Under the pieces are notes generated by a model that searched no databases, had not been told where the DNA came from, and saw only the letters and a list, made by a program, of their open reading frames with translations. Below are positions 5,839 through 54,344 of a DNA stretch of 64,000 nt, piece by piece. The translations under genes and the position numbers were made by a program. The stretch comes from an uncultured Candidatus Saccharibacteria bacterium. GTDB taxonomy: Bacteria; Patescibacteriota; Saccharimonadia; CAILAD01; BJGX01. The DNA lies in assembly GCA_964610335.1 (NCBI GenBank), contig CAZSVP010000001.1, forward strand, positions 223,442-287,441, in the 5' to 3' direction. How positions within the stretch are numbered: the first letter of the stretch is position 1; each line of letters opens with the position of its first letter.

Positions 5839-5839
5839 A

Positions 5840-5895: not shown

Positions 5896-5899
5896 GTGA

Positions 5900-6181: not shown

Positions 6182-6296
6182 GTTGGTGCCTTTCAGGCCG
6201 CCCTCCGGGGTGGAGGGCTAGAGCCTCTCAGGCGCGCCGTTCGATCCCATCTCGTCTCCTTTCGGTAGACAGTACGATGACAGCTAGATATTATTC

Positions 6297-13069: not shown

Positions 13070-13178
13070 AAGTCATATTATACCTCAATCTAAAGATACT
13101 AATGGTTAGCTTTTGCGAGACGGTTTGATATACTTACGGCGGAACTGTACACCTTGAGAATTGGGGAGGTGAACCCCC

Positions 13179-13574
13179 ATGCTACGAACCAAGTGTATCT
13201 TTGCCGAAGCTGAGCCCGATGACGGGTTGAGGATATCGGTGATGAGTCGGCACACGCTCGATGACGGGGTTACCCCAGACTTGCGCATCACTGTCGACTC
13301 GTTCGACTACCACTGGACGGTGTACGCGCCCAATCCTCAGTTGATCGGGAGCTACCTGCGCGACGAGGTCGACTGGACTGAATTTGACCAGCAATATCGC
13401 CAGGCGCAGCGCATGCCCGAACAAGTCGAGAAGCTCTGGACACTGATTCAGTGGGCAGAGGAGCGCAACATCACACTGCTGTGTAAGGAGGCCACTCCCG
13501 AACAGTGCCATCGTCGACTGTTAGCCGAAGAATGTCAGCTGCTCGACCCAACCCTGCAAGTCCATATCGCCTGA
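13179..13574 (+). CDS. DUF488 family protein (high-GC islet)
   Basis: The C-terminal ITLLCKEATPEQCHRRLLAEE matches the DUF488 signature. Strong RBS ggggagg and GC-rich codons. Confidence 0.55.
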   Translation: MLRTKCIFAEAEPDDGLRISVMSRHTLDDGVTPDLRITVDSFDYHWTVYAPNPQLIGSYLRDEVDWTEFDQQYRQAQRMPEQVEKLWTLIQWAEERNITLLCKEATPEQCHRRLLAEECQLLDPTLQVHIA

Positions 13575-13587
13575 AGGAGGCACCGCA

Positions 13588-13911
13588 ATGCCCGACATCA
13601 AACACCCTGGTCTATACAGTCTGTGGCTGTATGTTGACCGTGACAACGGTGCTCGTTTCACCTTCGTGGAGGTGACGGAGACCAGCACGTACGGTGCACC
13701 AGATGGCCATGTGGGAATGAAGTGGTACTCACTCAATGGTTGCACCGACAACCGAGAGTATGTGCACCGCGAAATTCCCGAAGAGATCCGGCGCCTCACC
13801 ATCGTCAAGTTCTGGCAGCTGGTGGATGAGCGCAAACTCATCTTCCTGAAGGAGCACCCTGGTGAGCACTTCGCGCCTGAGCCGATCTTGCAAGTCGGCG
13901 ACAAGGTCTGA
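13588..13911 (+). CDS. Hypothetical protein (high-GC islet)
   Basis: 107 aa. RBS aaggagg. No recognisable domain. Confidence 0.45.
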   Translation: MPDIKHPGLYSLWLYVDRDNGARFTFVEVTETSTYGAPDGHVGMKWYSLNGCTDNREYVHREIPEEIRRLTIVKFWQLVDERKLIFLKEHPGEHFAPEPILQVGDKV

Positions 13912-13927
13912 ACCCCAAGGACAACCC

Positions 13928-14086
13928 ATGCATGACCACCCCAACCCCTGTGAGAAGTGCAAGGAGCTCGGCGCGCCCACCGAGGGCATGACCAAGATGT
14001 GCCGTCACTGTGCCGGCAACTTCTGCTTCGGCCACATCACGGCTCACGAAGAGCAATGCGATGGGCCGATGAACCGCGACGACTGA
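13928..14086 (+). CDS. Small zinc-ribbon protein (high-GC islet)
   Basis: 52 aa from ATG 13928 (in frame with track ORF 13862..14086). Cys pattern CEKC...CRHC..C..H. Confidence 0.4.
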   Translation: MHDHPNPCEKCKELGAPTEGMTKMCRHCAGNFCFGHITAHEEQCDGPMNRDD

Positions 14087-14215
14087 GCACGGTTCGAACA
14101 CCGTCTGGGAGACTGCCCAGGCGGCTCCCTTCCAAGTGCTCAACCGGTTGAGTGTTTAGAAGGAAGCAACGCGATGCTATAATGCCCTTAAGCTAACATA
14201 AGGACTATAAAAATT

Positions 14216-14638
14216 ATGCGCATGAAGTATCGTTCGCTACTATCGATCTTGCTACTCAACATCATTACTCTCGGGCTATACCAGATCTACTGGTACTTCA
14301 TAACCAAAACCGAGATGAACACGTTAAACAAACGTGAATTGAAAGTGCCATTCTTTCTATGGTTTTTTATACCAATCATCAATATCTGGTGGTTTTGGCG
14401 ATGGGCTAAGGCGATTGAGGCTACCACCAAAGGCTTGATCGGTAGATGGGCAGCCTTTCTGGCGCCGTTTGTGATTGCGCTGGCTGTAAGCGTATTCTTC
14501 GGAATTACCGGACCGTTCAATATATATACCGACTCACTAACAAGCACACATTTCTTGCTTCAGGTGGCATTTGCCAACATCATTATCTTGCTGCCAGTTT
14601 TTTACTATCAATCCAATCTCAACAAAGTAGCTCGCTAG
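14216..14638 (+). CDS. DUF4234-like small membrane protein
   Basis: 140 aa, 4 TM, LGLYQIYWYF-type motif. Confidence 0.45.
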   Translation: MRMKYRSLLSILLLNIITLGLYQIYWYFITKTEMNTLNKRELKVPFFLWFFIPIINIWWFWRWAKAIEATTKGLIGRWAAFLAPFVIALAVSVFFGITGPFNIYTDSLTSTHFLLQVAFANIIILLPVFYYQSNLNKVAR

Positions 14639-23097: not shown

Positions 23098-24117
23098 TTA
23101 CTTCTTATGGCTACTGTGGGTTTGATGAGCGGTCGAGGTCTTGTGTGAGCGTTTTTTAATCTGTTGTTGAACCAGTGTTGTGCCTCGAGCTATTACGTCA
23201 AAACGGTACAGTAAGTACAACACTAATCCCACCAAGAGTAAGAAGAAGCCGTATGGTCGGGTGAGAGTGAAGTAAGTGTTGATTATGTCAGCGGTAGCTT
23301 GGTTGAGAGTATTGCCAATTACTTGATCAGTGCTTTGTGGCACAAACAAAAGTGTGATTGGCGCAAACATCCATGATCCTATAGTGACAATTAGGCCGGA
23401 TATCCCTAGTGTAAGCCCTGTAGTCCGTAGGATTGCTCGGTAGTTTCGGAAGTTGAGAGCTACGATACCGGCTAAGCTAAGGATTATTACCCACCATAGA
23501 ACTGTTACCAGCGTATTCAACTTCTGGAATGCCATTCGTAGCTTAACCATCATGAGCAGCGGGCTATCAGGATTCTTTTGCCCATCGACTACTGTAATGT
23601 CTCCTGGTACCGAGTTGATTAGCGAATTTAGCGGTTCGCTCAATACTGGTGGTAGCTTGGAATCACTTACAAACTTGCTTGCTTGAGCTTTGTATTTTCC
23701 GGATTCAATTACGACATTGTTGTTCTTGATCTGGGCATCAGCCTTGTCTGCAACCTTATAGGTAGTAGTTAGAATAGGCTCAGCTACTTTGGCAACGTTC
23801 TCAGGTGTTACTATCACATCAAGTAGTTTTTGGGCCAAGGCGTTTTGCAAGAAGTTGTCTTTAACTGATGAAGGTAGATTCTCAGATACCTCTGCTTTTA
23901 TCGCTGAAGATATGTGCACAAAAGTATTGGCATTGCGCATAAATACTACTAGCTTGGCAGCTGTGGCAAAATTATCGCGCAGGACTGTGCTGTAGGTACA
24001 AACCAAGATAGCCACTGCAGCTACTATCGCTAAAACGCGAGTCCAGCCGTGATGCTCCTTGCTCTTAGTGTTGGTTTCTGTCTGTTTGTGAGTATGTGTG
24101 GGCATGTTTCTCTCCAA
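23098..24117 (-). CDS. Hypothetical membrane protein
   Basis: 339 aa with N-terminal and C-terminal TM segments. Confidence 0.5.
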   Translation of the reverse strand: MERNMPTHTHKQTETNTKSKEHHGWTRVLAIVAAVAILVCTYSTVLRDNFATAAKLVVFMRNANTFVHISSAIKAEVSENLPSSVKDNFLQNALAQKLLDVIVTPENVAKVAEPILTTTYKVADKADAQIKNNNVVIESGKYKAQASKFVSDSKLPPVLSEPLNSLINSVPGDITVVDGQKNPDSPLLMMVKLRMAFQKLNTLVTVLWWVIILSLAGIVALNFRNYRAILRTTGLTLGISGLIVTIGSWMFAPITLLFVPQSTDQVIGNTLNQATADIINTYFTLTRPYGFFLLLVGLVLYLLYRFDVIARGTTLVQQQIKKRSHKTSTAHQTHSSHKK

Positions 24118-24206
24118 ATATTTTAAAAGTTACCTTGATTGTAGCTGGATGGCTTATCAAAATGCAAATATTCTTGTGCTTGTGAAAACTACAGTATAAT
24201 AGGATT

Positions 24207-24866
24207 ATGCAACAAGTTTGGGCAATACTACCATTTGCCATAGGCTCTGCGGTGAGCCCTCTTATCTTAACGGCTTCGATTTTAGCAATCTCTCAGCCGA
24301 AGCGACCATTGGCCAAGGCACTAGCATTCTTAGCCGGAGCGGCGATCTCAATTACAGTAATTGGCAGTTTTATTATATTGCTCAACCTTGGAGCCAAAAA
24401 AGCTTCATCTCAACCTAGCTTGGTAGATGCTGAGTTCCAGCTGGTTGCCGGTGTGGCATTGATAATATTTGCGCTTCGTAGATTATTGAAAAAGCGTACC
24501 AATACTAGTCAACATAGTGCCAAAGCTACCTCGGTTTGGAAGTACTTTGTATTGGGTATCGGCCTTATGGCGGTCAATACATCTACCATATTCCTCTACT
24601 TTCCAGCGGCCGTAGTGCTTACCAAAGAGTCAGCTACTGTGTCGGCCCGAGTGTTAGCGCTTGGTGTCATGATCCTATTTAGTTTACTACCAGCTATTGT
24701 CGCACCATTGTTGCTAGTAGTATTGGGCAAACATGCCCAACCAGTTTTGAGAAAGTTATCTGTCTTCGTTGAGCGATTTGGGCCGGCTATAATTGCTGTA
24801 CTGTTTGGTTTGATCGGAGTATTCTTGCTAATCAAGTCAATACTTGATCTAATGGCTTTGAGGTAA
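24207..24866 (+). CDS. Hypothetical integral membrane protein (6 TM)
   Basis: 219 aa and hydrophobic. Confidence 0.5.
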   Translation: MQQVWAILPFAIGSAVSPLILTASILAISQPKRPLAKALAFLAGAAISITVIGSFIILLNLGAKKASSQPSLVDAEFQLVAGVALIIFALRRLLKKRTNTSQHSAKATSVWKYFVLGIGLMAVNTSTIFLYFPAAVVLTKESATVSARVLALGVMILFSLLPAIVAPLLLVVLGKHAQPVLRKLSVFVERFGPAIIAVLFGLIGVFLLIKSILDLMALR

Positions 24867-24869
24867 CTA

Positions 24870-25121
24870 TTGGTGAGCTCCAGAAAATCATCTCAACAAA
24901 CTAGCCGTTGTGAACACCCCGAGAGTCGTATGCGTTCGGTTGTTAAAGCCATCGTTTATAGGTGTCTAATCATAGTTTCTATATTTGCTATAACTTACTT
25001 CGAAACCGGTAAGTTACAAGATGCATTGTCAATCACTGGTATTACGGCAGTGACTGGCACTATCATTTACTACTTACACGAGAGAGTTTGGAGCAGTATT
25101 AGTTGGGGGAGAACAAAATGA
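24870..25121 (+). CDS. DUF2061-like small membrane protein
   Basis: YYLHERVW motif. 83 aa. Confidence 0.45.
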   Translation: MVSSRKSSQQTSRCEHPESRMRSVVKAIVYRCLIIVSIFAITYFETGKLQDALSITGITAVTGTIIYYLHERVWSSISWGRTK

Positions 25122-25738
25122 GTAACTTCAAGGGCGAACTGAATAGCCACATATCAACTGCTCGAATCGAAGCGTTGAGTGATGGGGTGTTTGCTATTGC
25201 TATGACTCTTTTGGTACTCGATTTAAATGTACCAAACTTAGCTGGCACGGTTAGTAATCAACAGTTGTCGCAGGCTTTGTGGCAAATCTGGCCAAATGTA
25301 TTCGCATTTGTCCTAGCATTCTTACTACTTGGTAATGCTTGGGCCGTACATCATCGTCAGTTTGCACTAATCCAGAAATGGGACGATCGTTTTGTGATGA
25401 TCAATACACTTAGGCTACTGATAGTTGTGTGTATCCCATTTACAACATCACTAATTGCGCACTATGGCAATCTAACCAGTGGGGCATTGCCATTTGCGAC
25501 CAATTTCTTCTTACTAGCCATGGCTTCATACTGGCAGTGGGACTATGCTATCAAACACAATCTAATTGGATCGGTTTCGGCTCGAAGTAAGAAACTTGGT
25601 CGGCAAAAGAGTCTGTTTGCTGCGCTTGTGGCAATACTAGCTATGTTAACTTCGCTAGTCGCACCCGCCATATCACCAGCTGTATTTATGTTAAACTTTA
25701 TGGCTGAACCTGTATTGGAAAAAATCAATCATGAGTGA
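25118..25738 (+). CDS. TMEM175/DUF1211 family potassium channel
   Basis: RIEALSDGVFAIAMTLLVLDL signature. RBS ggggag. Confidence 0.7.
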   Translation: MSNFKGELNSHISTARIEALSDGVFAIAMTLLVLDLNVPNLAGTVSNQQLSQALWQIWPNVFAFVLAFLLLGNAWAVHHRQFALIQKWDDRFVMINTLRLLIVVCIPFTTSLIAHYGNLTSGALPFATNFFLLAMASYWQWDYAIKHNLIGSVSARSKKLGRQKSLFAALVAILAMLTSLVAPAISPAVFMLNFMAEPVLEKINHE

Positions 25739-25997
25739 ATTACCAAACCAGTCGGAACCAGCCCCAGACCCTGAGATTGCCAACTTATTTGATGTGATCA
25801 AAGGCGCACGCTATGAAAATTCACAAGATGGATCTATTTGGGTGTTGAATGGTGTATCCAATAATAGCCAAGGCCGCCAAGATAGTGACTATTCGCTTGA
25901 ATTTGTGAACAAAGACCAAGGGATATTAATCAAACCAGCCAAGAATTTTATTGCTGAGATACATCGTGGCGATTGGAAGCCTTATGCTGAGCAATAA
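25731..25997 (+). CDS. Hypothetical protein
   Basis: 88-aa ORF overlapping its neighbours. Confidence 0.4.
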   Translation: MSELPNQSEPAPDPEIANLFDVIKGARYENSQDGSIWVLNGVSNNSQGRQDSDYSLEFVNKDQGILIKPAKNFIAEIHRGDWKPYAEQ

Positions 25998-26733
25998 AAC
26001 TATTGCAAACTTACGCAGTGAGCTTAGATCACACGCCGATTCAGTTCGTGCCAAACATAGCCAACGTTTTTTCAAAACTGGACCGGGCGAATACGGGCAC
26101 GGCGACGTATTCTTGGGTGTTACCGTTCCTGTACAGCGCCAGATAGCCAAGAGCTACTATCACTTGAGCTTACATGACATAGAACAACTGTTACAAAGCA
26201 ATGTACATGAGCAACGATTGACGGCAATTATTATACTAGTCGCTCAGTTTAAGAAGGGTGATGCCACTACTCGTAAGTCAATCTACGATTTCTACCTAAA
26301 AAATACGAAGTATATCAACAATTGGGACATTGTTGACAGCTCCGCGCCATATATTGTTAGCGTTTACTTGTGGGATAACTATGCTCAAACCAGCTCGCCG
26401 TCGGTAGAAACTATCAAGATATTATCCAAGTTGGCAAGGTCTAAGTCTGTTTGGGATAGGCGGATCGCGATAATGTCCACTGCATACTTCATACAACAAG
26501 GGGACATCAATGAAACATTTGCAATTGCTGAAATTTTACTACACGACGAGCACGATTTGATTCAAAAGGCGGTTGGTTGGATGCTACGTGAAGTTGGTAA
26601 TAGCGTGGGGATAGAAAATGAAGAAGGATTTCTGAAAAAGCATTACAAAACAATGCCTCGCACCATGCTGCGCTATGCGATCGAAAAGTTTCCAGAAGCC
26701 AAGCGACAAGCTTATCTCAAGGGTGCCATCTAG
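25984..26733 (+). CDS. DNA alkylation repair protein (AlkD-like HEAT-repeat)
   Basis: HEAT-like repeats. Sequence resembles the DNA alkylation repair enzyme family. Confidence 0.65.
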   Translation: MLSNKTIANLRSELRSHADSVRAKHSQRFFKTGPGEYGHGDVFLGVTVPVQRQIAKSYYHLSLHDIEQLLQSNVHEQRLTAIIILVAQFKKGDATTRKSIYDFYLKNTKYINNWDIVDSSAPYIVSVYLWDNYAQTSSPSVETIKILSKLARSKSVWDRRIAIMSTAYFIQQGDINETFAIAEILLHDEHDLIQKAVGWMLREVGNSVGIENEEGFLKKHYKTMPRTMLRYAIEKFPEAKRQAYLKGAI

Positions 26734-26795
26734 ACTTTTTATCTGTAATTGTTTATAATCTGGCTCCAAGTGTCAACACAAAAGAGGGGGTACCT

Positions 26796-27041
26796 ATGAA
26801 GAAGGCACTTGTAATCTTGATCGTTCTTGGCGCAGTAACCACATGGTTGTTGCGCAAGTTTTCCATGACGCTTCCGTGCCCTGTGTGCCAGTGTCCTGCT
26901 GAGTACTCCGAGGAGAACTATGGCTATGTCTGCACCAACTCACGTTGCAGACACGTTGAGCGCAATCCCATGATGATGCGCCAAGATGTGCGGTCGGTAC
27001 GTTCAGCTCAGCCACCGCTTCACGGAGCTGGTAGCTCATGA
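26796..27041 (+). CDS. Mini-protein with a TM helix and a zinc-ribbon knuckle (high-GC islet)
   Basis: 81 aa. Hydrophobic N-terminus then CPVCQC...(17)...YVCTNSRC. RBS agaggggg. Confidence 0.45.
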   Translation: MKKALVILIVLGAVTTWLLRKFSMTLPCPVCQCPAEYSEENYGYVCTNSRCRHVERNPMMMRQDVRSVRSAQPPLHGAGSS

Positions 27042-27271
27042 AGGTTGTGCACAGATATCCACGAGCCATCAACCTGGCGGTTGTAGTAGGTTTGGTGGCA
27101 GTCATAGTGGTTCGTCACATCGATGGAGTCACTTGTCCCAAGCATGGAGTGGTCTTGTATCGTGACGGTCTGTTCAGTGGTCGTCGCTACTGTCCGATTG
27201 GAAGTTGCAACCACGAGTCGACGCGCGAGTACCGCCAATCGTTGCGCCAAGAACTCTCTGATCAGTTCTGA
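27038..27271 (+). CDS. Mini-protein with a TM helix and a zinc-ribbon knuckle, paralog-like (high-GC islet)
   Basis: 77 aa. ATGA overlap with the upstream ORF. CPKHG...(17)...YCPIGSC. Confidence 0.45.
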   Translation: MKVVHRYPRAINLAVVVGLVAVIVVRHIDGVTCPKHGVVLYRDGLFSGRRYCPIGSCNHESTREYRQSLRQELSDQF

Positions 27272-27295
27272 GCCGAGCCATAAGGAGGTGAAGAC

Positions 27296-27379
27296 ATGAA
27301 GAAGATCGCAGTGTTCGCGATCGTCGCGGCAGGGGGCTACGCCTTCTACCGCAAGTACTGGGGGCCGAACGCCATCTGA
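27296..27379 (+). CDS. 27-aa single-TM peptide (high-GC islet)
   Basis: MKKIAVFAIVAAGGYAFYRKYWGPNAI. RBS aaggagg 5-6 nt upstream. Below the track length cutoff. Confidence 0.3.
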   Translation: MKKIAVFAIVAAGGYAFYRKYWGPNAI

Positions 27380-27459
27380 GGCGTTTCCACAGAACAACAC
27401 ACGGCCTTGCGCCTCGGATTCGTCCGGAGTGCAGGGTCGTTGTTCGTTATAGGGAGTTA

Positions 27460-28068
27460 TTATATCTGTTCGAAGAACATCAGGCGACGACGCTCGTTGT
27501 TGCTTCCGTTGCAGGTAAGTAGTACTACTGTAGGTACCTCGCTTTGGCGGCTAAATATCTTCACATCGTCAGGTTCTACAAACTTGTCACTAACAAAACG
27601 CCATTTGGTAATCCTACCATCTGAGTGTGTTAGCAGCAGAGAGTCGCCACGTTGAATAGACGTCGTCTTGCCTAGAACAGCATCGGTGTTATGGCCATAA
27701 ATAATTGAAGTATTAGTGTCTTGAGCAGGCAAGCTCGACAAGGTTGCAAAAAAAGCATTCTTATCATCTATATACCAGTCATCAAGTGACTTATTGAAGC
27801 TACCCATCAATATTGACAAGTCAATCTGTTGGCGTGGTAACTGAAGCCTAATTGGTGCCTGGGTTAACGCGCTCTTTGACGCTTCTATCTCTGGATTCTT
27901 TAATACTGAGGTAGCTTGAGCTGATCGGTCAAGTAACTTGGGTGAGACCACAAAAGTAGCTATACCAAAGCCTATCGCCAAGCCTATCAAAAGCGCAAAA
28001 ACGACCCGGTGAATTTGATGTGGGTCGATTTGATTGATTCTAGATCTGAGTAGATGGAGAGTTTTCAT
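27460..28068 (-). CDS. Sortase family transpeptidase
   Basis: VVLLTCNG catalytic Cys motif and an N-terminal TM anchor. Confidence 0.75.
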   Translation of the reverse strand: MKTLHLLRSRINQIDPHQIHRVVFALLIGLAIGFGIATFVVSPKLLDRSAQATSVLKNPEIEASKSALTQAPIRLQLPRQQIDLSILMGSFNKSLDDWYIDDKNAFFATLSSLPAQDTNTSIIYGHNTDAVLGKTTSIQRGDSLLLTHSDGRITKWRFVSDKFVEPDDVKIFSRQSEVPTVVLLTCNGSNNERRRLMFFEQI

Positions 28069-28198
28069 AATGTATAGTCACCCTCCAGTAACGGCGCTAG
28101 TCTAACATGGCCTTCTTGGTAAGTCAATTGATCTGTGGAAAATACCTCTCTTATCTGGTAGTATTAGCAACCAAGTACCTCGACGAAGGGAATATGGT

Positions 28199-28393
28199 AT
28201 GTCAGCTACAAAGCTCAAGAAGTTGGTGGAGAAGCATCCGACGGCGAGCAATCTCGTGCTCATTGACCTCCCAGATGGTGAGTTCATGGCGCGCTTTTGC
28301 TTATCACCCAGCTCCACGGCGCCCCACGTCTATGGTTTCGGGGCTACTCCAGATACAGCCGCTCAAGATGCAGCTGATTGGTTCAATGGTTGA
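28199..28393 (+). CDS. Hypothetical small protein (high-GC islet)
   Basis: 64 aa with an aaggga RBS. Confidence 0.4.
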   Translation: MSATKLKKLVEKHPTASNLVLIDLPDGEFMARFCLSPSSTAPHVYGFGATPDTAAQDAADWFNG

Positions 28394-28396
28394 GCC

Positions 28397-28495
28397 ATGA
28401 TCGAACTGCTTGGCAAATCCATCGGCATCAGTCTCTATGGCGTCTGGCTGATCTTCAACAAGCTTCGTGATATAGTTCGAAGCGAAGGAGCATAG
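28397..28495 (+). CDS. 32-aa single-TM peptide (high-GC islet)
   Basis: MIELLGKSIGISLYGVWLIFNKLRDIVRSEGA. The start lies 3 nt after the previous stop. Confidence 0.25.
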   Translation: MIELLGKSIGISLYGVWLIFNKLRDIVRSEGA

Positions 28496-28496
28496 G

Positions 28497-28673
28497 ATGC
28501 GCAAGTCAATCCTGATAGCAAGTGGCATGTTGGTGGCATTCTCACTTTGGCGTTGGCATCGTGGAAATGTGCGGGTGGCGAATGGTTGCTGTCGGGCTTG
28601 TGGTAGCACGATTCACCCAGATCCTGTAGAGATGCATGTCTACTGTCCAGGTTGCAAGAAGTACATCTACTAG
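28497..28673 (+). CDS. Mini-protein with a TM helix and a zinc ribbon (third paralog-like member)
   Basis: 58 aa: MRKSILIASGMLVAFSLW...CCRACGS...(17)...YCPGCKK. RBS gaaggag. Start 1 nt after the previous stop. Confidence 0.4.
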   Translation: MRKSILIASGMLVAFSLWRWHRGNVRVANGCCRACGSTIHPDPVEMHVYCPGCKKYIY

Positions 28674-28735
28674 GTATGTACAAATATGCTCAATTGTTGT
28701 ACAATCTTGCCACCTCGATAAGAAAGGGGCTCGAT

Positions 28736-29098
28736 ATGGAGCCAACCAATAGTGCAGCGGATTTTTGGGGTCACATACACGCGCTCGAAGAGATGGTCAA
28801 CATCATTGAGGGTTGCAGTGACTTCCATTTCGGCTTTGTCGACAACGGTCCGGCGGATTGCTGGTTCGAGATCAGCTGGATTGATGCCACCCTCGAGGGT
28901 GGCGCGGTCAAGCTGACCAACCCCAACCATTTCCGGTTGATCGACGATGCCTACAAGTTGTTCACCGACCAGCATCGTGGCAGTTGGGACAGCTTCTCTA
29001 GGTTGTCGTCGCGTTACACCACGGCCGAGACCACAGCGCTGCGCGAGCGTGGCCGCAACAGCTGGCGTTCGCAGGTGACCTTCGGGGTGGGGACGTGA
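28736..29098 (+). CDS. Hypothetical protein (high-GC islet)
   Basis: 120 aa from the internal ATG (track ORF 28652..29098) with an agaaagggg RBS. Confidence 0.45.
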   Translation: MEPTNSAADFWGHIHALEEMVNIIEGCSDFHFGFVDNGPADCWFEISWIDATLEGGAVKLTNPNHFRLIDDAYKLFTDQHRGSWDSFSRLSSRYTTAETTALRERGRNSWRSQVTFGVGT

Positions 29099-29168
29099 GT
29101 CTCCACCCCGCGAGGGGAATCTTAGTTTGTTCTAGATATACCAGCTATGTTTAAAACAAGTTTAGATA

Positions 29169-30692
29169 TTATTGGGAAGTAGGAGTAGCAGTTTGGGCTT
29201 TTACAAAGTCATCACCAACTGTGATCTCAAAATCAGCCACAGGGTACTTAACCGGTGTTGCCGGAGGGGTTGGTTTGACGCCTACCAGTTTCTCGAGGTA
29301 TGCAGCTGTGTTTGGTTTGGCACCGTTTGTGTAGTCTATTATTGAACTTGTAGCATTATTACGTGTTTTGGCATTGCCAATGCTGAGTATTTGAATAACA
29401 TCACCATCGTTATTGATCTTGGTACTTAACTTGCCGGCAGCCCCCGCAGTAGCAGTACCGTTGAGTATTACTATCTTTGGCTCTTCCTTCCAAATTGGCC
29501 CAAGCACAAATACGTTTTTGATAAATGCTTGAATGTCATCAAAGTTACCGCCGATAGGCAACAGGTCGGAGCTTGAACTATCTGTTTTCAAGAAGCCTCC
29601 TGGTTTGATTGAGAAGACTACGTTTATTATGTTTTGGTTACTGAGGTCCTTGGTGAGCTCGCGAAGTCGTAGTATATTCTTGATACTTAAGTCAGTTTTG
29701 ATGTTGTTGGCAGCTGTTTGGATCAGGCTAGTAACCTTGCTTGGGTCAGAAAGAGTTTGGATGCTCAAGGCTTTTTCGCGCACTTTTTGTAGCACTTCTT
29801 GTTGTCGGAGAGCACGCCCAAAATCATCCCCACAAGTTCCTTTGCGGCAGCGTGCGTATTTAAGAGCCGTCGCACCATCCATATGCTGCTGACCTTTTAG
29901 TATACGTATGCCGCAGCTGCGGTATTCGTTCTTCTCACATGGATACTCAGTGTCTATAAGATCTTCTTTAACGTCTACATCTATGCCTCCTACCGCATCG
30001 ACAGCTTGTTTGAGACCGCTGAAGTTAGCGCGTACATAGTAATGAATTGGTATGCCTAAGGTATTCTCAACAGTTTTCTTTGCCAAATCAATACCTTTGC
30101 CACCTTGGTATAGCTCACCATCGGCATGGGCGTTATTAATCTTGTTGTAGCCAAAACCAGGTATCTGCACTCGCGTATCTCGCGGGATACTGATCATAGC
30201 AACTTGGTTGGTCTTGGTGTTAAGGCTTACTACCATGTTGGTGTCAGCCAGTGTTTCGCCATCATGTCCTGGATCGCCCACACCTAATAGTAATATGTTG
30301 ACCCTACCATCGTCTTCGCCTTTGAGTTTATCAGTAAGACTAAAAGGATTGGTACTTACAGAACTAAGGTTCATAAACAGGTATACAAAGTAGCCAATAA
30401 GGGCTAAAAAGCCAAGTAATGCAAAACAAAACAGTACTACTTTCCAGCGCTTCTTTTTGGGCTTTGGGTTGTTTAGATTGATTATCTCGGTATCCATGGC
30501 AGAATCTTTCTTGGATTTCTTTGTGTCAACTACAGCATCACCATGGCCGCCCTTGGTAGATATGTCATTTTGTGGTCGAGCTTTGGGCTTGTCTCGCTTG
30601 GGCGAGTAAACAAAGTCAATCGCTCGCTTGCCGGCCTTTTTCTTATCCTCGACTGGATCGTAGGTGAAGTCCGGCTGCTGACTCTTTTTCAT
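29169..30692 (-). CDS. LCP family (LytR-Cps2A-Psr) cell-wall polymer transferase
   Basis: N-terminal basic region and TM helix. LCP domain region (NTDTMMVVSLN-like: DTNMVVSLNTKTN). Confidence 0.8.
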   Translation of the reverse strand: MKKSQQPDFTYDPVEDKKKAGKRAIDFVYSPKRDKPKARPQNDISTKGGHGDAVVDTKKSKKDSAMDTEIINLNNPKPKKKRWKVVLFCFALLGFLALIGYFVYLFMNLSSVSTNPFSLTDKLKGEDDGRVNILLLGVGDPGHDGETLADTNMVVSLNTKTNQVAMISIPRDTRVQIPGFGYNKINNAHADGELYQGGKGIDLAKKTVENTLGIPIHYYVRANFSGLKQAVDAVGGIDVDVKEDLIDTEYPCEKNEYRSCGIRILKGQQHMDGATALKYARCRKGTCGDDFGRALRQQEVLQKVREKALSIQTLSDPSKVTSLIQTAANNIKTDLSIKNILRLRELTKDLSNQNIINVVFSIKPGGFLKTDSSSSDLLPIGGNFDDIQAFIKNVFVLGPIWKEEPKIVILNGTATAGAAGKLSTKINNDGDVIQILSIGNAKTRNNATSSIIDYTNGAKPNTAAYLEKLVGVKPTPPATPVKYPVADFEITVGDDFVKAQTATPTSQ

Positions 30693-30758
30693 ATTGGTTT
30701 ATTATAACCGAAATCAGCCGAGTCTGTGACTAGAATGCTTAGGCTATTTGGCGTATAA

Positions 30759-31502
30759 TTGCGAGCTATGTTTCTACCTGTACAAAGTTTTGTTATGGCA
30801 GTGTTGGCATTTGTGAGCACCTGTGCTGGGGGTGGCTTAGCATACATTTTTCAAGATAAGCTGCACCGAGTACTAGGCTTCTCGGCGGGGTTTATATTAG
30901 GGCTACTGTTTTTTGATTTATTTCCAGAAGTTTTTGGACAATCACAAACACTTTGGCCTGCGGTTGGTGTGGCGGCAGGATTCTTGGGTTTTCATATAGT
31001 TGAGAAACTGGTTGCTGTGCATGGTAATCATGAACACGAGTACAGCCAACATAGTCATGCTGTGGTTGGTAAGTTTGCAGCCGGCGCGTTGATTGTGCAT
31101 AGCTTGCTTGATGGTATAGCGATTGGGGCGAGTTTCTTAATCAGTTCAGCCGCAGGTCTGAGTGTCTCACTAGCCATATTGGCCCACGATTTTACAGATG
31201 GTATGAACACAGTGGCTATTATGCTGCGACATCGTGACAAACCTCGTAACACATTTGGCTTTCTGCTGCTTGATGCAGTTGCCCCAATTGTGGGTGTGGC
31301 TATAAGTCTTTGGCTACATCCATCGGAGCAGGTATTACAGATGATAGTTGCAGTATTTGCAGGATTTCTGCTATATATCGCTACAAGTGACATTTTGCCA
31401 GAAGCTCATAGTAAACATCCCTCTAAGCTTACGTTGGTGTTTACAATTTTAGGTTTATTGCTGGCATTTGTTATTTCGATGTTACTTAGGTCTATAGCCT
31501 AA
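30759..31502 (+). CDS. ZIP family metal (zinc) transporter
   Basis: His-rich loop HGNHEHEYSQHSH and HSLLDGIAIG motif. Confidence 0.8.
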   Translation: MRAMFLPVQSFVMAVLAFVSTCAGGGLAYIFQDKLHRVLGFSAGFILGLLFFDLFPEVFGQSQTLWPAVGVAAGFLGFHIVEKLVAVHGNHEHEYSQHSHAVVGKFAAGALIVHSLLDGIAIGASFLISSAAGLSVSLAILAHDFTDGMNTVAIMLRHRDKPRNTFGFLLLDAVAPIVGVAISLWLHPSEQVLQMIVAVFAGFLLYIATSDILPEAHSKHPSKLTLVFTILGLLLAFVISMLLRSIA

Positions 31503-31541
31503 GGCTGATTATTGTTACAATACAAATAGTCCGCTAGATCC

Positions 31542-32015
31542 ATGGGAGGATCCGTGAACCTCGACACAGCATTGCAAGAAGTTCGAAGTATCTTCGACAA
31601 TGACGATCGGCCTGACGATGCTGGATACGTCAGTGTTGAAGTAGCCGCCAGACAGTTCGTAGCGGGCTTGGATCAACAAGCCTTCTGGAAAGTCTTTCAG
31701 CAAGCCAGTACTGACCCGATCATCAAGGCCGAGGCGGGTACAGTCACGGTGACGAGCAGCATGCTTGTAGACGTGCCAGCATGTACGCTCAAGTTGATGC
31801 TGACCCAGTTGCTGCGCTGCGATGCCAAGCTTTGTCAGTTGGAGGAGGAGCGCCATCAGGAGGCCCGCGACTTGGGCATGTTGCCCAGGGTTGTTAAACG
31901 GCCAAACGGCAGTAGCGCAATCGTTTATGGGCCACACAGAAGTTCGAAACCGATCGATGATGCGAGCTTCTGGGATCAGCGAAGGGCCCAACAAGCTCAG
32001 CTTGCAAGCAGGTGA
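31542..32015 (+). CDS. Hypothetical protein in a GC-rich segment. Strand choice tentative
   Basis: 157 aa. The plus-strand frame has more protein-like composition than the overlapping minus ORF. Confidence 0.35.
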   Translation: MGGSVNLDTALQEVRSIFDNDDRPDDAGYVSVEVAARQFVAGLDQQAFWKVFQQASTDPIIKAEAGTVTVTSSMLVDVPACTLKLMLTQLLRCDAKLCQLEEERHQEARDLGMLPRVVKRPNGSSAIVYGPHRSSKPIDDASFWDQRRAQQAQLASR

Positions 32016-32095
32016 CAATCAGCCCATCGAGGCGAGCCAGAGGGGGCCCGCCTCGGCGGGTTCCCTACAGTTATTATTTACAGAAGGACAAATTA

Positions 32096-32538
32096 TGAGC
32101 AAAACTAGCCATGCTCGACACGAGCACAAGAAACACGCTAAATCCAGTGCAGCTATGGGGGACCATATTGATACAAGTTTTCACGAGCCCTCAGTATGGG
32201 TAGACGCCGGCATTGTGATCTGTTTACTTAGCCTGGCATTTTTCTTTATTGTGCCATTTGCAAGTTTTATGTCCACCAATCTAGTGCTAATAATGTTGGC
32301 GTTATTTTCTATCGTGATTGTAGTATTTATGGCTATGGTGTGGCGAAATCGCCCAAGTCAAAGTAGTCACCCACGCCACATAGAAGCAGGGCATGTTACT
32401 TATCTAGCGGCTATTGGGCTACTTAGTATAGCAATCGTTTTTCAGGTTATTAGGCATGAACTCGATGTATGGCTAGTTGTGATACTAGTCATACTAGTTC
32501 TGTTACATGCTATTTATCGAAGATCTGGGCGAAGGTAG
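32096..32538 (+). CDS. Hypothetical membrane protein
   Basis: Internal start MSKTSHARHEHKK with a His/Lys-rich N-terminus, then 4 TM. Confidence 0.45.
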
Positions 32539-35758: not shown

Positions 35759-36661
35759 CTAAAAATTATTCAAGCTTGTACTAACCTAGGTAGTGACAAT
35801 GCCGGCACTGAGAAGGCTCCACCCTATATATTAGACAAAAGCCTTAGAGCTGGGTTGGAACACAACTCTATAGCATACGCTGAGGCTCCAGCTGTACATG
35901 ACCCTGTAGATATTGTAGAGAACAAAACCACAAATCTGCATAACCATGCAGCCGTTCTAGAGTTTAGCAAGAATCTCAATCAAACTATTTTGGATGCAGT
36001 TGAGGCTGATGATATCGCACTAACTATAGGTGGCGATCACTCAGTAAGTATTGGGTCGTTTTTTGCCACTAAAGCAAATTATGAAAATGCTTGTATACTG
36101 TACATCGATGCACATCCAGATTGCACTACACCATCAACAACATTGACTGGGAATATCCATGGCATGCCAGTTTCGACAGTGCTTGGTGATGCTCTATACA
36201 TAGAGTTTGGTTTGCCCAAGTATAACTATGACGAAGTATTTATGATCGGTGTTAAAGATATCGATCCGGCGGAGACGGAATATCTTAACAAGCACTCAAT
36301 TGTGTATAAAACAATCGATAATATTACCCACGATGGTATTGGCCCGACTCTAGACGCATTACTAAAGCTTATCGGCAATCGTCCGCTACATGTTAGTCTG
36401 GATATAGATGGGGTAGATATCAGTGAGGCTCCAGGAACTGGCATACTCAACAAGGGTGGTCTTAGCTATCGAGAAGTTAGTTACATTTGTCGCGCTGTGG
36501 CCCAGAGTTGTAACATAGTGGCAATTGACCAAGTAGAAGTAAATCCTGATCGTGATGTTGATAACAAAACTACAGAATTGGCAGCAGAATTATTAGTAAG
36601 CTTACTTGGCGGCAACTGGGATGCATATACAAGGTATATAGAACTTCAGAAACAACGCTAA
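35759..36661 (+). CDS. Arginase/agmatinase/formiminoglutamase family hydrolase
   Basis: GGDHSVSIGS, DAHPD and SLDIDGVD manganese-binding motifs. Confidence 0.75.
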   Translation, partial: LKIIQACTNLGSDNAGTEKAPPYILDKSLRAGLEHNSIAYAEAPAVHDPVDIVENKTTNLHNHAAVLEFSKNLNQTILDAVEADDIALTIGGDHSVSIGSFFATKANYENACILYIDAHPDCTTPSTTLTGNIHGMPVSTVLGDALYIEFGLPKYNYDEVFMIGVKDIDPAETEYLNKHSIVYKTIDNITHDGIGPTLDALLKLIGNRPLHVSLDIDGVDISEAPGTGILNKGGLSYREVSYICRAVAQSCNIVAIDQVEVNPDRDVDNKTTELAAELLVSLLGGNWDAYTRYIELQKQR

Positions 36662-36694
36662 AGCATAGCCATTTTGAGTACTTGTTTGGTATAA

Positions 36695-37954
36695 TTGTCC
36701 TTAACTATGCCAGATCCAGACAATACATTTCCTATACCGCCACTTTCACCAAAAACCGATGGGACAAGTGCGGCCACGCCGGGAATGCCACCACAGCCAG
36801 GGGCCACACCACCCGGCCCTATGCCAAGCAATGATTGGGTTGCACCTTCTCAGCCTGCTGCAGCTACGCCTCCTCCAGTGGCACCACCAGTCATGGACCA
36901 ACCTGCACCTGCACCCATGTCTGCTCAACCAGCACCAGCGCCGATCACACCCGCCCAACCTGCACCTGCCCCAGTGCCACAACCAACGCCAATCCCTCAG
37001 CCAAGCATTCCAGTCGACGATGGACTAGGCGCACCACCACCAGGGGCGCCCGTTTCTGGCCAACCAGCACCAGCTCCAGTGCCGCAACCAATACCGCCCG
37101 CTGAAGCCACTGTTCCTATGCCACCACCAACCACAGAACCTACCAACATGCTTGATCTATCAGCTTCAGCAAATGCTGGGGTACCAAACCAACCAGTTCC
37201 ACCACCGGGCATGAGCCCAGCAGGCACTGGCCTACCAACTGACATGAACACCGATCTTATGGCTGCTGACGCCGCTATGTTAGGTACTGATGTAGCAGTG
37301 GAGCAACCCAAAAAGAGTAAGCTCAAAATCGTAATAATTGTGGCCCTTGTGTTTGTTGGTCTTATCTTGGTATTGAGTTTAGTTTTGTATCTCACTGGTC
37401 GATCAAGCCGTAAACCAGCCATAGAGCTAAACGAGACGCAGAATACCCAACAAACTCAAACTCAACCAGCCACCGATCCAAACGCTCCAGCTGCCATCCC
37501 AGAGGGCTTTGTGAAGATTACTCGTGATTGCTACAGTTTTGGGTTTCCAGCCGATAACACTATTCCTCCAGCTGAAAAATCCTGTTCTCTAAACGCCAAG
37601 ATCGGCAAGCTTGGACTTGGTAGTATGACGGTTGTTCCGAGCACAAACGTGGTTAACAACCTCGATGATTTGTTGGCAGTCGCCAAAAGCTCCAACAAAG
37701 TGCTAAGTGAAGAAGATACTAAGATCAATGGCGTTGCTGCCAAGAAATTGGTGATAGATGGAGGTGCTTCCGGCCAGTCAGTGAAATACTTGGTAATTGT
37801 GAAGGACAAGGGTTATACGCTCAATGGCAAGCCAGTCCAAAGCTTTGATATTACTATCTCTACTGGCCAAGACTTTTTCAAGAAAGTCGCCGATACAGCA
37901 ATTAGCACTTGGCAATGGGCTACTACGACACCTGCCGCAGCAACAACTCCATAA
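36695..37954 (+). CDS. Pro/Ala-rich membrane-anchored protein
   Basis: Long PAPAP low-complexity N-terminus, a central TM helix and a C-terminal domain. Confidence 0.5.
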   Translation: MSLTMPDPDNTFPIPPLSPKTDGTSAATPGMPPQPGATPPGPMPSNDWVAPSQPAAATPPPVAPPVMDQPAPAPMSAQPAPAPITPAQPAPAPVPQPTPIPQPSIPVDDGLGAPPPGAPVSGQPAPAPVPQPIPPAEATVPMPPPTTEPTNMLDLSASANAGVPNQPVPPPGMSPAGTGLPTDMNTDLMAADAAMLGTDVAVEQPKKSKLKIVIIVALVFVGLILVLSLVLYLTGRSSRKPAIELNETQNTQQTQTQPATDPNAPAAIPEGFVKITRDCYSFGFPADNTIPPAEKSCSLNAKIGKLGLGSMTVVPSTNVVNNLDDLLAVAKSSNKVLSEEDTKINGVAAKKLVIDGGASGQSVKYLVIVKDKGYTLNGKPVQSFDITISTGQDFFKKVADTAISTWQWATTTPAAATTP

Positions 37955-45080: not shown

Positions 45081-45103
45081 GATTGTATTAATTTTTCTTG
45101 AAT

Positions 45104-45156
45104 GCTCTCCCAAAAACCTAATGTTTTAGATCTTAGGGAGAGCGACAATCACGACG
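45104..45156. repeat. Stem-loop element CTCTCCCAAAA...GGGAGAGCGACAATCACGACG (copy 1)
   Basis: 8-bp stem gctctccc/gggagagc with a 24-nt loop that contains an inner hairpin. Related to the copy at 46248. Confidence 0.5.
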
Positions 45157-45192
45157 TTTCGGACGGCCCCTCTCCTTGTTTGTCATGGGTGA

Positions 45193-45378
45193 CTAGGCCA
45201 TGAACCCGGTGAGAACGAATGCGATGCCGATTGGCATCATGAAGTTGCCAGCCGCCGCTGGGGCGAGCCACTCTGCCTTGAAGTGGTTCTCGGTCAGCAT
45301 GAGTCGGCCAATCTGCCATTGCAGACGTACTCCTTCTGTGAACAGCAACACGCCGAATACCGCGAACATGAGTCTCAT
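45193..45378 (-). CDS. Small membrane protein (high-GC islet)
   Basis: 61 aa and hydrophobic. ATGA overlap with the upstream gene. Confidence 0.4.
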   Translation of the reverse strand: MRLMFAVFGVLLFTEGVRLQWQIGRLMLTENHFKAEWLAPAAAGNFMMPIGIAFVLTGFMA

Positions 45379-45752
45379 GACTCATCTCCTTTCGAGCGCT
45401 CCACGATCTTGACGTGACGTGGTTGGTGGTGGCGACGCGGAGAATCGTGGTGCGGGCGGGTTTGCTTGGGCGTCGGGCGCAACGGCTCGTCGTTCCATCG
45501 ACGGTAGATGTTGTCTACCTGGCGTGGGCAGTCGTTGAGTAGATCATTGGCGATGTAGAAGCTGATGGCGCTGACCGGGGTCATGAGCACCTTCAGCCAC
45601 ACCGGCCAGTCGAGAGCTCCGAACCAGGCGAGTGGCGCGGTGGCCGCCACGATTCCGAACAGCACGATCGGAAACCACAAGATCAGATGTGCACCCGTCA
45701 CGTAGCAGTACCAGCTGATCTCACCGATCACTTCGTTGAACTTGCTCTTCAT
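45375..45752 (-). CDS. Membrane protein with a basic Pro/His/Arg-rich tail (high-GC islet)
   Basis: Start MKSKFN with an aggagg RBS. The track ORF extends further upstream as a low-complexity artefact. Confidence 0.45.
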   Translation of the reverse strand: MKSKFNEVIGEISWYCYVTGAHLILWFPIVLFGIVAATAPLAWFGALDWPVWLKVLMTPVSAISFYIANDLLNDCPRQVDNIYRRWNDEPLRPTPKQTRPHHDSPRRHHQPRHVKIVERSKGDES

Positions 45753-45760
45753 GTGTCCTC

Positions 45761-45910
45761 CTAGCGGACTGTTGTGGTTTGCTGTCCGACCCCACCGGGA
45801 TTGAACGGCTTTGGCGGGGTTGGTTGTTGAGCTGCGATCCAGGTCACTATCACCGTGCAAATGAGCCCGATGACGATAAACCAGATGAATCCTCTGAGGC
45901 AGCCTTTCAT
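45761..45910 (-). CDS. 49-aa single-TM peptide (high-GC islet)
   Basis: MKGCLRGFIWFIVIGLICTVIVTWIAAQQPTPPKPFNPGGVGQQTTTVR. ATGA overlap with the upstream gene. Derived by hand. Confidence 0.3.
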   Translation of the reverse strand: MKGCLRGFIWFIVIGLICTVIVTWIAAQQPTPPKPFNPGGVGQQTTTVR

Positions 45911-46146
45911 GGGCCATACTCCTGGTAGGTGGAAGGTGAGTGTGGCTTACGGCTTTCGATAACGAACATCGTGGCCATAAATACCACGAGCAGACCAGCA
46001 AGCAAACCAAACGACAACTTGCGAAGTCGTATGGCCCGCTTGGTCTGACTGCAATATGCCCAGATTGTTACACCGAGCATTCCCATCCACCCTAACATAG
46101 AGACCAATCCAATGGTCCCCAGAGCTATGTTTGTCTCTGTGACCAT
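45907..46146 (-). CDS. Small membrane protein (high-GC islet)
   Basis: About 79 aa from MVTETNIALG, 2 TM. Confidence 0.35.
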   Translation of the reverse strand: MVTETNIALGTIGLVSMLGWMGMLGVTIWAYCSQTKRAIRLRKLSFGLLAGLLVVFMATMFVIESRKPHSPSTYQEYGP

Positions 46147-46247
46147 CGGGTATCCCTTCTTGTCGTGATTGTCGAGGTGTTCGCAAACCCAAAAAAATCC
46201 AGATTCGCGATCTGGCCAACTATACCATAATTTGTTCAACTTGTCTA

Positions 46248-46299
46248 CTCTCCCAAAACGTTCAAACCTTGAACACTTTGGGAGAACGACAACCAACTG
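46248..46299. repeat. Stem-loop element CTCTCCCAAAACGTTCAA-ACC-TTGAACACTTTGGGAGAACGACAACCAACTG (copy 2)
   Basis: 15-bp imperfect inverted repeat. Shares its 5-prime CTCTCCCAAAA and 3-prime GGGAGARCGACAAYCA with the copy at 45104. Confidence 0.5.
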
Positions 46300-46370
46300 T
46301 TGTGTCCTCGCCCGGCCAGTATCTTATCGCGGCCGGTATGGGGGATGTTAGCAGTACTTTCTTGTTTCTG

Positions 46371-46949
46371 CTAGCACGTTTGGCCTGGTCGCGTGGTCGA
46401 TGTGCCGTATGGAAGGCACATGTTGTCGACCTTGCCCTGTCGCTGCGTCGTGGTCGGAGCCAGGCAGCTGTCGGGCTGCACTACCACGATGGCTGAAATC
46501 GTGCCATTTGGATCCATCGATTGGATGGTGTTCTGTGTGCATGGATCAGCCTTGTACGCTTCGGCCGGCGTTGGGATCTCGGGCTGAACATCTGGCACTG
46601 GGCACTTCCCGGTTGGAACCGTGAACTTTGGTAGTTCGTGGTTCCAACCGTCAATGAATGCCGTGTCGGCCAGGTATCGGAACCTGATCTTGCAGGTACC
46701 ATTGTCCAACAGGCCTTGGATCTCGGCGAGCGCCAACGTCATACCACTCACCTGGTAGCTCGGTGGCTTTTCGCAGCCGCTGGGGCCACACCCTTTTTCT
46801 TGGGGAGGGACCAACGGGTTGTTGAGCGGCGATTGCGAGTCACCGATGGTGGTCGGGCTCTTCACGGCGTCGTCGTTGGCAGCGGGCTGGCCGTTGCACG
46901 CGGTGCACACGAAGAACAGAGTGGACAGGACTAGGATGAGCCGTTTCAT
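46371..46949 (-). CDS. Secreted protein or lipoprotein, Cys/Pro/Thr-rich (high-GC islet)
   Basis: Signal peptide MKRLILVLSTLFFVCTAC. GC-rich codons. Confidence 0.5.
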   Translation of the reverse strand: MKRLILVLSTLFFVCTACNGQPAANDDAVKSPTTIGDSQSPLNNPLVPPQEKGCGPSGCEKPPSYQVSGMTLALAEIQGLLDNGTCKIRFRYLADTAFIDGWNHELPKFTVPTGKCPVPDVQPEIPTPAEAYKADPCTQNTIQSMDPNGTISAIVVVQPDSCLAPTTTQRQGKVDNMCLPYGTSTTRPGQTC

Positions 46950-46970
46950 GGCTCACCACCTTTCATTTTT

Positions 46971-46983
46971 GTTGGTTGTCGTT
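46971..46983. repeat. Inverted copy (GTTGGTTGTCGTT) of the 13-mer AACGACAACCAAC found at 46285-46297
   Basis: Exact 13-nt reverse-complement match. The two copies flank the lipoprotein gene. Confidence 0.5.
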
Positions 46984-47078
46984 GTGGGGTGCTTGCTGGT
47001 TACCTGTTGGATAGGGAAATCAACAAACGCCAATATGTTATCATAATTTATACAATTTGTCAAGTACATTACACTCCA

Positions 47079-47115
47079 CTTGATACTTCTGTCTTGATAC
47101 TTAATACTTGATAGC
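47079..47115 (+). promoter_or_regulatory. 2.6 tandem copies of CTTGATACTT with 14-bp period, forming a TTGATA-N17-AATACT-N7-ATG leaderless-type promoter for fpg
   Basis: Read directly: cttgatacttctgt / cttgatacttaata / cttgatagc, then ATG. Confidence 0.45.
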
Positions 47116-54324: not shown

Positions 54325-54344
54325 TCCCAGCCGACACCAGCTGC

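Follow-up and report, generated by a model that had tools for sequence, protein, structure and literature searches.

Orphan genes for membrane-anchored zinc-finger proteins and single-helix micro-proteins flank a sortase gene in a Candidatus Saccharibacteria chromosome

The 64-kb window considered here (the whole stretch of DNA that was analysed, from a Candidatus Saccharibacteria chromosome) contains two adjacent islets of small genes: seven short open reading frames (ORFs) on the + strand, which lie between an AlkD-like gene and an LCP gene and are divided by a sortase gene on the - strand. Three of them, A, B and F, code for single-pass membrane proteins whose C-terminal part of 30-45 residues has the ligand pattern of a zinc ribbon or treble clef and a predicted knuckle–hairpin–knuckle. 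Two more, p27 and p32, code for single-helix micro-peptides, and D and G for soluble proteins. These are lineage-restricted orphan genes, new and undescribed members of generic known kinds (small membrane-anchored zinc-finger proteins and single-helix micro-proteins), and the pattern of substitution among relatives indicates that all seven are under purifying selection. The relatives compared are L013 (a Candidatus Saccharibacteria metagenome-assembled genome with a sortase 73% identical to that of the window), L011, L014, L015/L016, L012 and L018; the window itself is 100% identical to the Logan contig L001, and near-identical strains occur in many metagenomes.

Seven small genes around a sortase gene

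The first islet consists of A (26796-27041, 81 amino acids (aa)), B (27038-27271, 77 aa) and p27 (27296-27379, 27 aa). A and B overlap in an ATGA, and p27 follows B after 24 nucleotides (nt). The second islet begins with D (28199-28393, 64 aa), the first gene of the second operon, continues with p32 (28397-28495, 32 aa) and F (28497-28673, 58 aa), and ends with G (28736-29098, 120 aa); D is separated from p32 by 3 nt and p32 from F by a single nucleotide. The sortase gene between the islets (27460-28068, - strand) is recognized by Pfam (Sortase, E = 4.8e-13). An earlier description made from the letters alone, here called the sequence-only reading, had listed A, B, p27, p32 and F, and all five are present on the + strand where it had placed them, in islets that flank the sortase gene as it had said. 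It was right about p32 and F in the second islet and left out the soluble genes D and G, and the stop-to-start gaps of 0-3 nt that it described apply to D–p32 and p32–F and not to B–p27.

The small genes form two transcription units, A-B-p27 and D-p32-F; p27 and p32 are co-transcribed with the zinc-finger proteins, and translational coupling additionally links p32 to D and to F. A consensus scan places a promoter-like site, TAGACT-17-TATAAT, upstream of A (26731..26759, + strand), and in an alignment its TATAAT is kept in L015, L013, L011 and L012. Another such site, TGTACA-17-TACAAT, lies upstream of G (28677..28705, + strand), which is probably expressed from its own promoter. Ribosome-binding sites are conserved among the relatives: they read GAGGGGG before A, AAGGAGGTGA (a strong site) before p27 and GAAGGAG before F, the last within the end of p32. 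Where the p27 and sortase genes converge, RNA folding reveals a long hairpin (27393..27448; 56 nt, -35.6 kcal/mol, z = -4.3), and none of 200 shuffled sequences was as stable. It is conserved in L012, L014 and L015 and is probably a bidirectional terminator. The second unit has no significant terminator, and an Rfam search over positions 24000-32000 gave no match.

Upstream of the first islet, the AlkD-like gene (25951-26733, + strand) is of the DNA-alkylation-repair kind. An SOS-induced division inhibitor downstream of this repair gene was considered; no SOS/Cheo box (GAAC-N4-GTTC) was seen by eye in the A promoter, and the GAACAAC/GTTGTTC pair that follows p27 consists of the arms of the terminator hairpin. 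Beyond G lies the LCP gene (29169-30692, - strand), and directly past it a gene for a ZIP/ZupT-type zinc transporter (30759-31502, + strand), about 2 kb from the zinc-finger mini-proteins. Gene callers treat the small genes inconsistently: p27 is uncalled in every locus read, and p32 and F are called in only some.

Conservation and architecture of the small proteins

A-B-p27 is found at the 3' end of the sortase gene in every one of the relatives, and G between the sortase and LCP genes in L013, L014 and L018. Orthologues of A are present in L011, L013, L014, L015 and L018, those of F in L018 (with a TTG start) and L013 (upstream of D), those of D in L013 (45% identity) and L018 (94%), and those of G in L013 (61%) and L014 (82%), with an allele of 41% identity in L018. 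When the window is compared with L013, L014 or L015 the ORFs are conserved in frame, with a synonymous divergence (pS) of 0.6-0.88 and a nonsynonymous divergence (pN) of 0.2-0.45; the values are 0.69-0.79 against 0.21-0.44 for A and 0.73-0.88 against 0.20-0.33 for B. Synonymous sites are thus essentially saturated where the protein is conserved, and the ORFs are accordingly real genes under selection.

In A, B and F a hydrophobic segment of 15-16 residues begins at residue 4-10 and is followed by two knuckles. The ligands are C28-x2-C31-x14-C46-x4-C51 in A, C33-x2-H36-x15-C52-x4-C57 in B (where the whole domain can be written C-x2-H-x15-C-x4-C-x-H) and C32-x2-C35-x14-C50-x2-C53 in F. In the alignments of all three these ligands are invariant while the residues around them vary. 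The spacer of 17 residues given by the sequence-only reading holds only when the count runs from ligand one to ligand three (17, 18 and 17). Orthologues of A share C28, P29, C31, G43, Y44, C46, N48 and C51; outside this fixed Cys scaffold A is hypervariable, with a variable C-terminal tail, and the extra Cys of its 'CQC' is not conserved among relatives. B has 31 invariant columns in six sequences and a conserved C-terminal helix, ESTREYRQSLRxE, and the F orthologues of L018 and L013 preserve CCRxCGS…DP.E…YCP.C.KYI. The window contains 595 ORFs of 30-130 aa, and a regex scan of them detected the paired-knuckle pattern in seven and its combination with an N-terminal hydrophobic segment in four. 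A, B and F account for three of these and lie within 1.9 kb of one another; the remaining one runs antisense within a larger gene. This clustering makes the architecture non-random, and the shared layout that the sequence-only reading had noticed is therefore genuine.

AlphaFold2 models place a helix at residues 2-24 of A, followed by strands (predicted local distance difference test score, pLDDT, 60), and in B a helix at 9-28, a hairpin at 41-51 and a second helix at 63-76 (pLDDT 61). Foldseek searches of both models against PDB and BFVD returned generic zinc-finger noise only (E > 0.4). The odd numbers of Cys and the conserved His of B favour metal binding over disulfides. Lys and Arg residues number 1-2 before and 2-4 after the helix in A, and two before and four after in F; this excess of positive charge after the helix favours cytoplasmic zinc domains for these two proteins. 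B has three positive charges before its helix and, in three of four homologues, a net charge of +1 after it.

Are the three zinc-finger proteins paralogs of one family, as the sequence-only reading proposed? BLAST detects no similarity between A, B and F, and their hidden Markov models (HMMs) give no cross-hits. An hhalign comparison of A and B yields a probability of 31% (P = 5e-4) with an alignment that spans the helix and both knuckles, A and F align over the transmembrane (TM) helix only, and B and F score 0.6%. A tandem duplication is plausible for A and B from this alignment, but the three are not demonstrably one family, and their common layout would reflect either convergence or a common origin that rapid evolution has obscured. 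When HMMs of A, B, F and p27 were run against the window and 57 kb of related loci, no additional copies came to light.

The sequence-only reading knew of no described family with this pattern, and the searches agree. Nothing above threshold was obtained for any of the seven small proteins from Pfam, PHROGs, NCBIfam or PADLOC (the last without a match at E <= 1), nor from PDB sequence searches with profiles of A, B, D and G. Among 5.8 billion sequences each protein has only 1-3 homologue clusters, which all sources label 'hypothetical'. Run by HMMER against all of 1.84 billion cluster representatives, the B profile recovered the protein's own cluster and a repetitive artefact (P0007) only. No relatives were found by tblastn of A and G against phage GenBank sequences or by IMG/VR scans with A, F, D and G, and scans of metagenome contigs with G and with B gave nothing.

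The nearest likeness of B came from a pattern scan of IMG/VR, which retrieved a 583-aa HNH/homing-endonuclease protein (L017) with four repeats of the form C-(P)-x-H-G-x-F…S-G-x-G-C-P-x-C. Pfam assigns these repeats to DUF723 (5.5e-13), with weaker matches to CapR and to the DUF4379 'treble clef', and hhalign aligns the B family with the four of them at 89% probability (P = 2e-6), a value biased by selection, since one repeat had been retrieved through the pattern CPKHGVV. Such repeats are regarded as the zinc fingers with which phage T5orf172 homing endonucleases and the satellite repressor CapR bind DNA (PMC10448857). B and the DUF723/CapR/DUF4379 repeats have in common a C-P-x-H-G-hydrophobic knuckle, a hairpin of about 10-15 residues ending in S-G-x-x, and a second Cys pair followed by a helix. 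They differ in that DUF723-type repeats occur in tandem, with a C-x2-C second knuckle, in proteins that bear a nuclease domain, whereas B is a single module with C-x4-C, without a nuclease and fused to an N-terminal TM helix. Because of the pattern-selected repeat, the lack of a Pfam match and this C-x4-C, B is best described as the same kind of zinc module, its membership in the family being unproven. A finds its best matches, all below threshold, among generic zinc ribbons (Lar PF14354, IBR, the NUDIX zinc ribbon, Trm112/UPF0434). The Lar match has 18.4 bits and E = 0.0026, below the gathering threshold of 28.6, and similar sub-threshold Lar matches occur in three of five members of the A family. 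A and F have the rubredoxin-like knuckle pair of these domains, C-P-x-C…C-x2-4-C, around a hairpin of 14 residues; those domains are soluble, whereas A and F have an N-terminal TM helix.

The micro-peptide p27 can be summarized as MKK-TM-YRKYWGPNAI, with a hydrophobic helix at residues 4-18. In five lineages it is almost invariant (MKK..V......GGYAFYRKYWGPNAI): the WGP after the helix is found in all of them and YWGP in four. The C-termini of p27 differ between L011 (3538-3624, …AAWYYGHKRIWGPDAP) and L013 (9377-9460 of the reverse complement, …GGYAFYRKYWGPNAI), in which A and B are nearly identical, and the C-terminus in L013 is identical to that in the window. The difference between L011 and L013 suggests a gene conversion of p27 between lineages. 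The closest named family is DLW-39 (NCBIfam NF038356) of Actinobacteria, to which residues 2-21 of p27 align on positions 1-20 of the 38 in the model (E = 9e-5, 22.2 bits, cut-off 24). The likeness consists of MKK and a TM helix, essentially one hydrophobic helix; it falls below the cut-off, and p27 is without the C-terminal half that bears the DLW motif.

The other micro-peptide, p32, keeps its frame and length in L018 at about 15% nt change (pN 0.11, pS 0.31), and in L013 an ORF with a TM segment after D is its positional counterpart. Of the soluble proteins, D had given the by-eye impression of a HicB/UPF0150-like protein, which no search supported and which was dropped. The G allele of L018 (6300-6659) shares with that of the window the N-terminal MEPT.SAA, a central GG.V.L..P…LIDDA.K.F and the C-terminal VTFGVGT.

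Base composition and exchange of alleles

The small genes are compositionally foreign. Their guanine-cytosine (GC) content is 51-61% and the GC content at third codon positions (GC3) 0.54-0.89, compared with 43-44% and 0.36-0.48 in the flanking core genes; p32 is the exception, with 47% overall and a GC3 of 0.58. The GC enrichment pointed out by the sequence-only reading thus extends to all the small genes except p32, and the islets are GC-rich in L013 too.

The whole window is a GC mosaic, in which some 20 islets with a GC content of 52% or more, reaching 63%, stand out from a background of about 43%, which makes the locus around the sortase gene one instance of a genome-wide pattern. Most of these islets hold orphan small ORFs with a GC3 of 0.6-0.9; examples are 5601-6500, 13101-14300, 31501-32200, 36601-37400, 45101-47100, 50701-51900, 53001-54600 and 55401-57500. 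One GC-rich islet contains a 74-aa ORF (13862-14086, + strand) with a zinc-ribbon-like CEKC…CRHC…C..H and no TM helix. Another contains two ORFs on opposite strands, 31515-32018 (- strand, 167 aa) and 31542-32015 (+ strand, 157 aa), that overlap almost fully, and there the gene callers picked the + strand.

Comparison of the window with L013 gives 54-70% identity for A, B, p27 and G, 45-70% when D is included, and 63-75% for AlkD, sortase and LCP. The identities of the small genes are close to those of their flanks; the islets are not recent insertions, and the islet genes are older than the divergence of four or more of the lineages sampled. The order of genes is not entirely fixed, as in L013 F is relocated to a position before D.

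Comparisons with closer strains give a different picture. Between the window and L014 the flanks are 84-88% identical in nt and the sortases 96% identical in aa (pS 0.38), whereas A has 39% aa identity (pS 0.79) and B 61% (pS 0.88), and neither gene can be aligned as DNA. In L014 D-p32-F is deleted, and homology to the window resumes at 28667. The locus of this strain (315-1550) also has two additions that separate AlkD from the A-type gene, a gene with a TfoX_N domain (a competence-regulator domain) and a TM peptide of 51 aa, and a p27-like TM peptide of 39 aa between B and p27. L015 is 91% identical to the window in nt from 27131, in the middle of B, onward; upstream of this point nt alignment is restricted to the promoter and the start of A (78%), and A has 48% aa identity. 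L018 has flanks 95% and 90% identical in nt and a sortase 100% identical (pS 0.09), and its G has 41% aa identity (pS 0.63).

A block of p27, hairpin and sortase (27274-28239) is near-identical in nt among strains whose A and B are synonymously saturated, and recombination has its boundaries near 27131, within B, and at 27274. Between the closest strains the small proteins change faster, with a pN of 0.03-0.11, than their neighbours, with one of 0.003-0.017, and the replacements are mostly in the TM helices and the tail of A. A, the TM half of B, and G thus occur in deeply divergent allelic forms, which recombination has exchanged between strains that are nearly identical elsewhere. Such modular behaviour of divergent alleles is typical of accessory and conflict genes.

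Possible roles

Given the foreign composition, the promoter-like sites, the terminator hairpin of p27 and the swapping of alleles, the best guess is a role of the accessory or conflict kind. The likeness of B to zinc modules of a mobile-element type also speaks for it. Under this proposal, which is put forward tentatively, the islets are old, compositionally foreign accessory cassettes of the conflict type that code for membrane-tethered zinc-finger micro-proteins. The TM helices would assemble the pieces into small membrane complexes, and the zinc modules, probably cytoplasmic in A and F, would be the heads that bind a partner, either protein or nucleic acid. The cassettes might act as moron-like units, with a role such as the exclusion of phage or foreign DNA, or contact with the host bacterium at the level of the envelope; regulation of a housekeeping kind seems less likely. 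The locus resembles phage morons and superinfection-exclusion membrane proteins in its small membrane proteins, atypical GC content and variability between strains, and in the promoter-like site and terminator hairpin of A-B-p27 and the promoter-like site before G. It differs from them in that prophage context and homologues in phage collections are absent and its position between core genes is fixed in all lineages.

Several observations weigh against this proposal. None of the seven proteins has a homologue of known function, and no phage, integrase or toxin gene is found nearby. PADLOC, PHROGs, the phage tblastn searches and the IMG/VR scans are negative except for the single motif-selected match of B, the hhalign value of which carries the bias of its CPKHGVV retrieval, and the Pfam models DUF723, CapR and DUF4379 miss all six members of the B family even at E <= 10. 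The AlphaFold2 models are of low confidence (pLDDT about 60), the fold searches gave no significant match, and the charge counts leave the topology undecided. The locus lies in the same place, next to sortase and LCP, in every lineage sampled, which fits envelope housekeeping equally well. The suggestion by the sequence-only reading of a toxin/immunity-like or phage-derived system stands in a similar position: foreign GC content and allele swapping fit it, but no phage or defence homologue has emerged beyond the motif-level resemblance of B.

Could the small proteins serve the sortase itself? SafA, a single-pass protein of 52 aa whose gene directly follows that of an actinobacterial sortase, binds the TM helix of the sortase, and its exoplasmic FPW motif shields the enzyme from signal peptidase (PMC9282373). 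By analogy p27 would modulate envelope biogenesis as a membrane partner of sortase, LCP or both, and A, B, p32 and F might do the same, a doubtful but not far-fetched alternative. A-B-p27 abuts the 3' end of the sortase gene in every sampled lineage, G sits between sortase and LCP, and p27 and the sortase are inherited as one near-identical block. The most conserved piece of the locus is p27, with a WGP just outside its helix that is positionally like the FPW of SafA (PMC9282373), and the sortase has an N-terminal TM helix followed by an A-x-A-like site (…RSAQATS). This site recalls the actinobacterial SrtA that signal peptidase can cleave and SafA protects (PMC9282373).

SafA and p27 are alike as tiny single-pass proteins next to a sortase with an aromatic/proline mini-motif just outside the helix, but they share no sequence similarity. 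At 27 against 52 aa, p27 is half as long; SafA has PGP before and FPW after its helix, whereas p27 lacks both and has MKK before and WGP after, with no similarity to a named family above threshold. The gene for SafA lies immediately downstream of a class E housekeeping sortase and in the same orientation, whereas p27 is convergent with the sortase gene and not downstream on the same strand, and NCBIfam does not place this sortase in class E or assign it any class. Moreover, the relatives sampled are too close (69-95% nt identity) for synteny to weigh much, and the deep allelic divergence of A and B beside an invariant sortase is unlike a fixed partner.

An unlikely alternative is that the mini-proteins are exported to the surface, as uncleaved signal anchors (N-in, C-out) with metal- or disulfide-stabilised ectodomains that diversify through contact with host or phage. 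The signal-sequence-like N-termini (MKK or MRK and a hydrophobic stretch), the charges of B (3 before the helix and net +1 after it in 3/4 homologues), the hypervariability of A outside its Cys scaffold and a neighbourhood that codes for cell-surface enzymes would all suit such a role. However, A and F are more positive after the helix than before it, the odd Cys counts and the conserved His favour zinc sites of the intracellular type, and the proteins have neither signal-peptidase nor LPXTG motifs.

Elements of these ideas and of the accessory-cassette proposal can be joined into a more elaborate picture, itself distinctly unlikely, of undescribed membrane micro-complexes (A+B+p27 and, separately, F+p32) of epibionts of the Candidate Phyla Radiation (CPR). 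Their zinc heads, held at the membrane by single helices, would derive from DNA- or protein-binding modules of mobile elements, and the parts that set their specificity would be maintained as deeply divergent, recombining alleles. The complexes would then serve diversifying recognition or exclusion at the envelope, against phages or foreign DNA or in contact with the host, with p27 as a SafA-like guardian of the sortase.

The anti-sigma-like function raised among others by the sequence-only reading belongs to an improbable class of explanations, in which the proteins are membrane-tethered regulators whose zinc domains hold a transcription factor or DNA at the membrane through an anti-sigma-like or CapR-like head. 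The layout does resemble that of single-pass anti-sigma factors, and B the DNA-binding DUF723/CapR zinc fingers. A, B and F share with ZAS anti-sigma factors one TM helix and a small Cys/His metal site, but the H-x3-C-x2-C motif of ZAS is absent from all three, and no cognate sigma gene is present. In classical anti-sigma factors the cytoplasmic zinc domain is N-terminal to the helix, whereas the metal site here is C-terminal to it, so that the order of domains is reversed. No regulator or sigma-factor gene lies in or beside the islets: no sigma domain occurs in 20 kb of called genes, and the genes nearby code for AlkD-like, sortase, LCP and ZIP proteins. There is also no Pfam match. The anti-sigma idea accordingly fails on both motif and neighbourhood.

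It is very improbable that p27, p32 or both are membrane peptides like type I toxins, with the remaining genes as unrelated passengers. The two are very short, hydrophobic and single-helix, the ribosome-binding site of p27 is very strong and its nucleotide sequence unusually conserved, and read-through from the convergent sortase gene could produce antisense transcription over it. But the peptides are co-transcribed and p32 is translationally coupled, which is not the arrangement of stand-alone genes with an antisense RNA, and neither an Rfam match nor similarity to a known toxin was found. Finally, the ORFs are each short, some GC-rich frames are richer in Cys codons, and the sequence-only reading had allowed for chance similarity among Cys-containing ORFs in GC-rich DNA, but frames, starts and ligands kept across lineages with saturated synonymous sites, and the rarity of the layout among the ORFs of the window, refute this and leave next to no probability that these are not genes.

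As it stands, the locus offers no new mechanism but a group of small orphan genes that are well documented. It shows ORFs of less than 100 aa, and some of less than 35 aa, that are under selection, organized in structured operons and diverse in their alleles beside essential envelope enzymes. The genome of a saccharibacterium is tiny and the cell lives attached to another bacterium, and genes that are kept and yet keep diversifying are candidates for a place at the poorly understood interface with host or phage. If the proteins turned out to protect the sortase, to exclude phages or to recognize the host, for instance, such a function would add a layer of micro-proteins to the cell-surface biology of the CPR.

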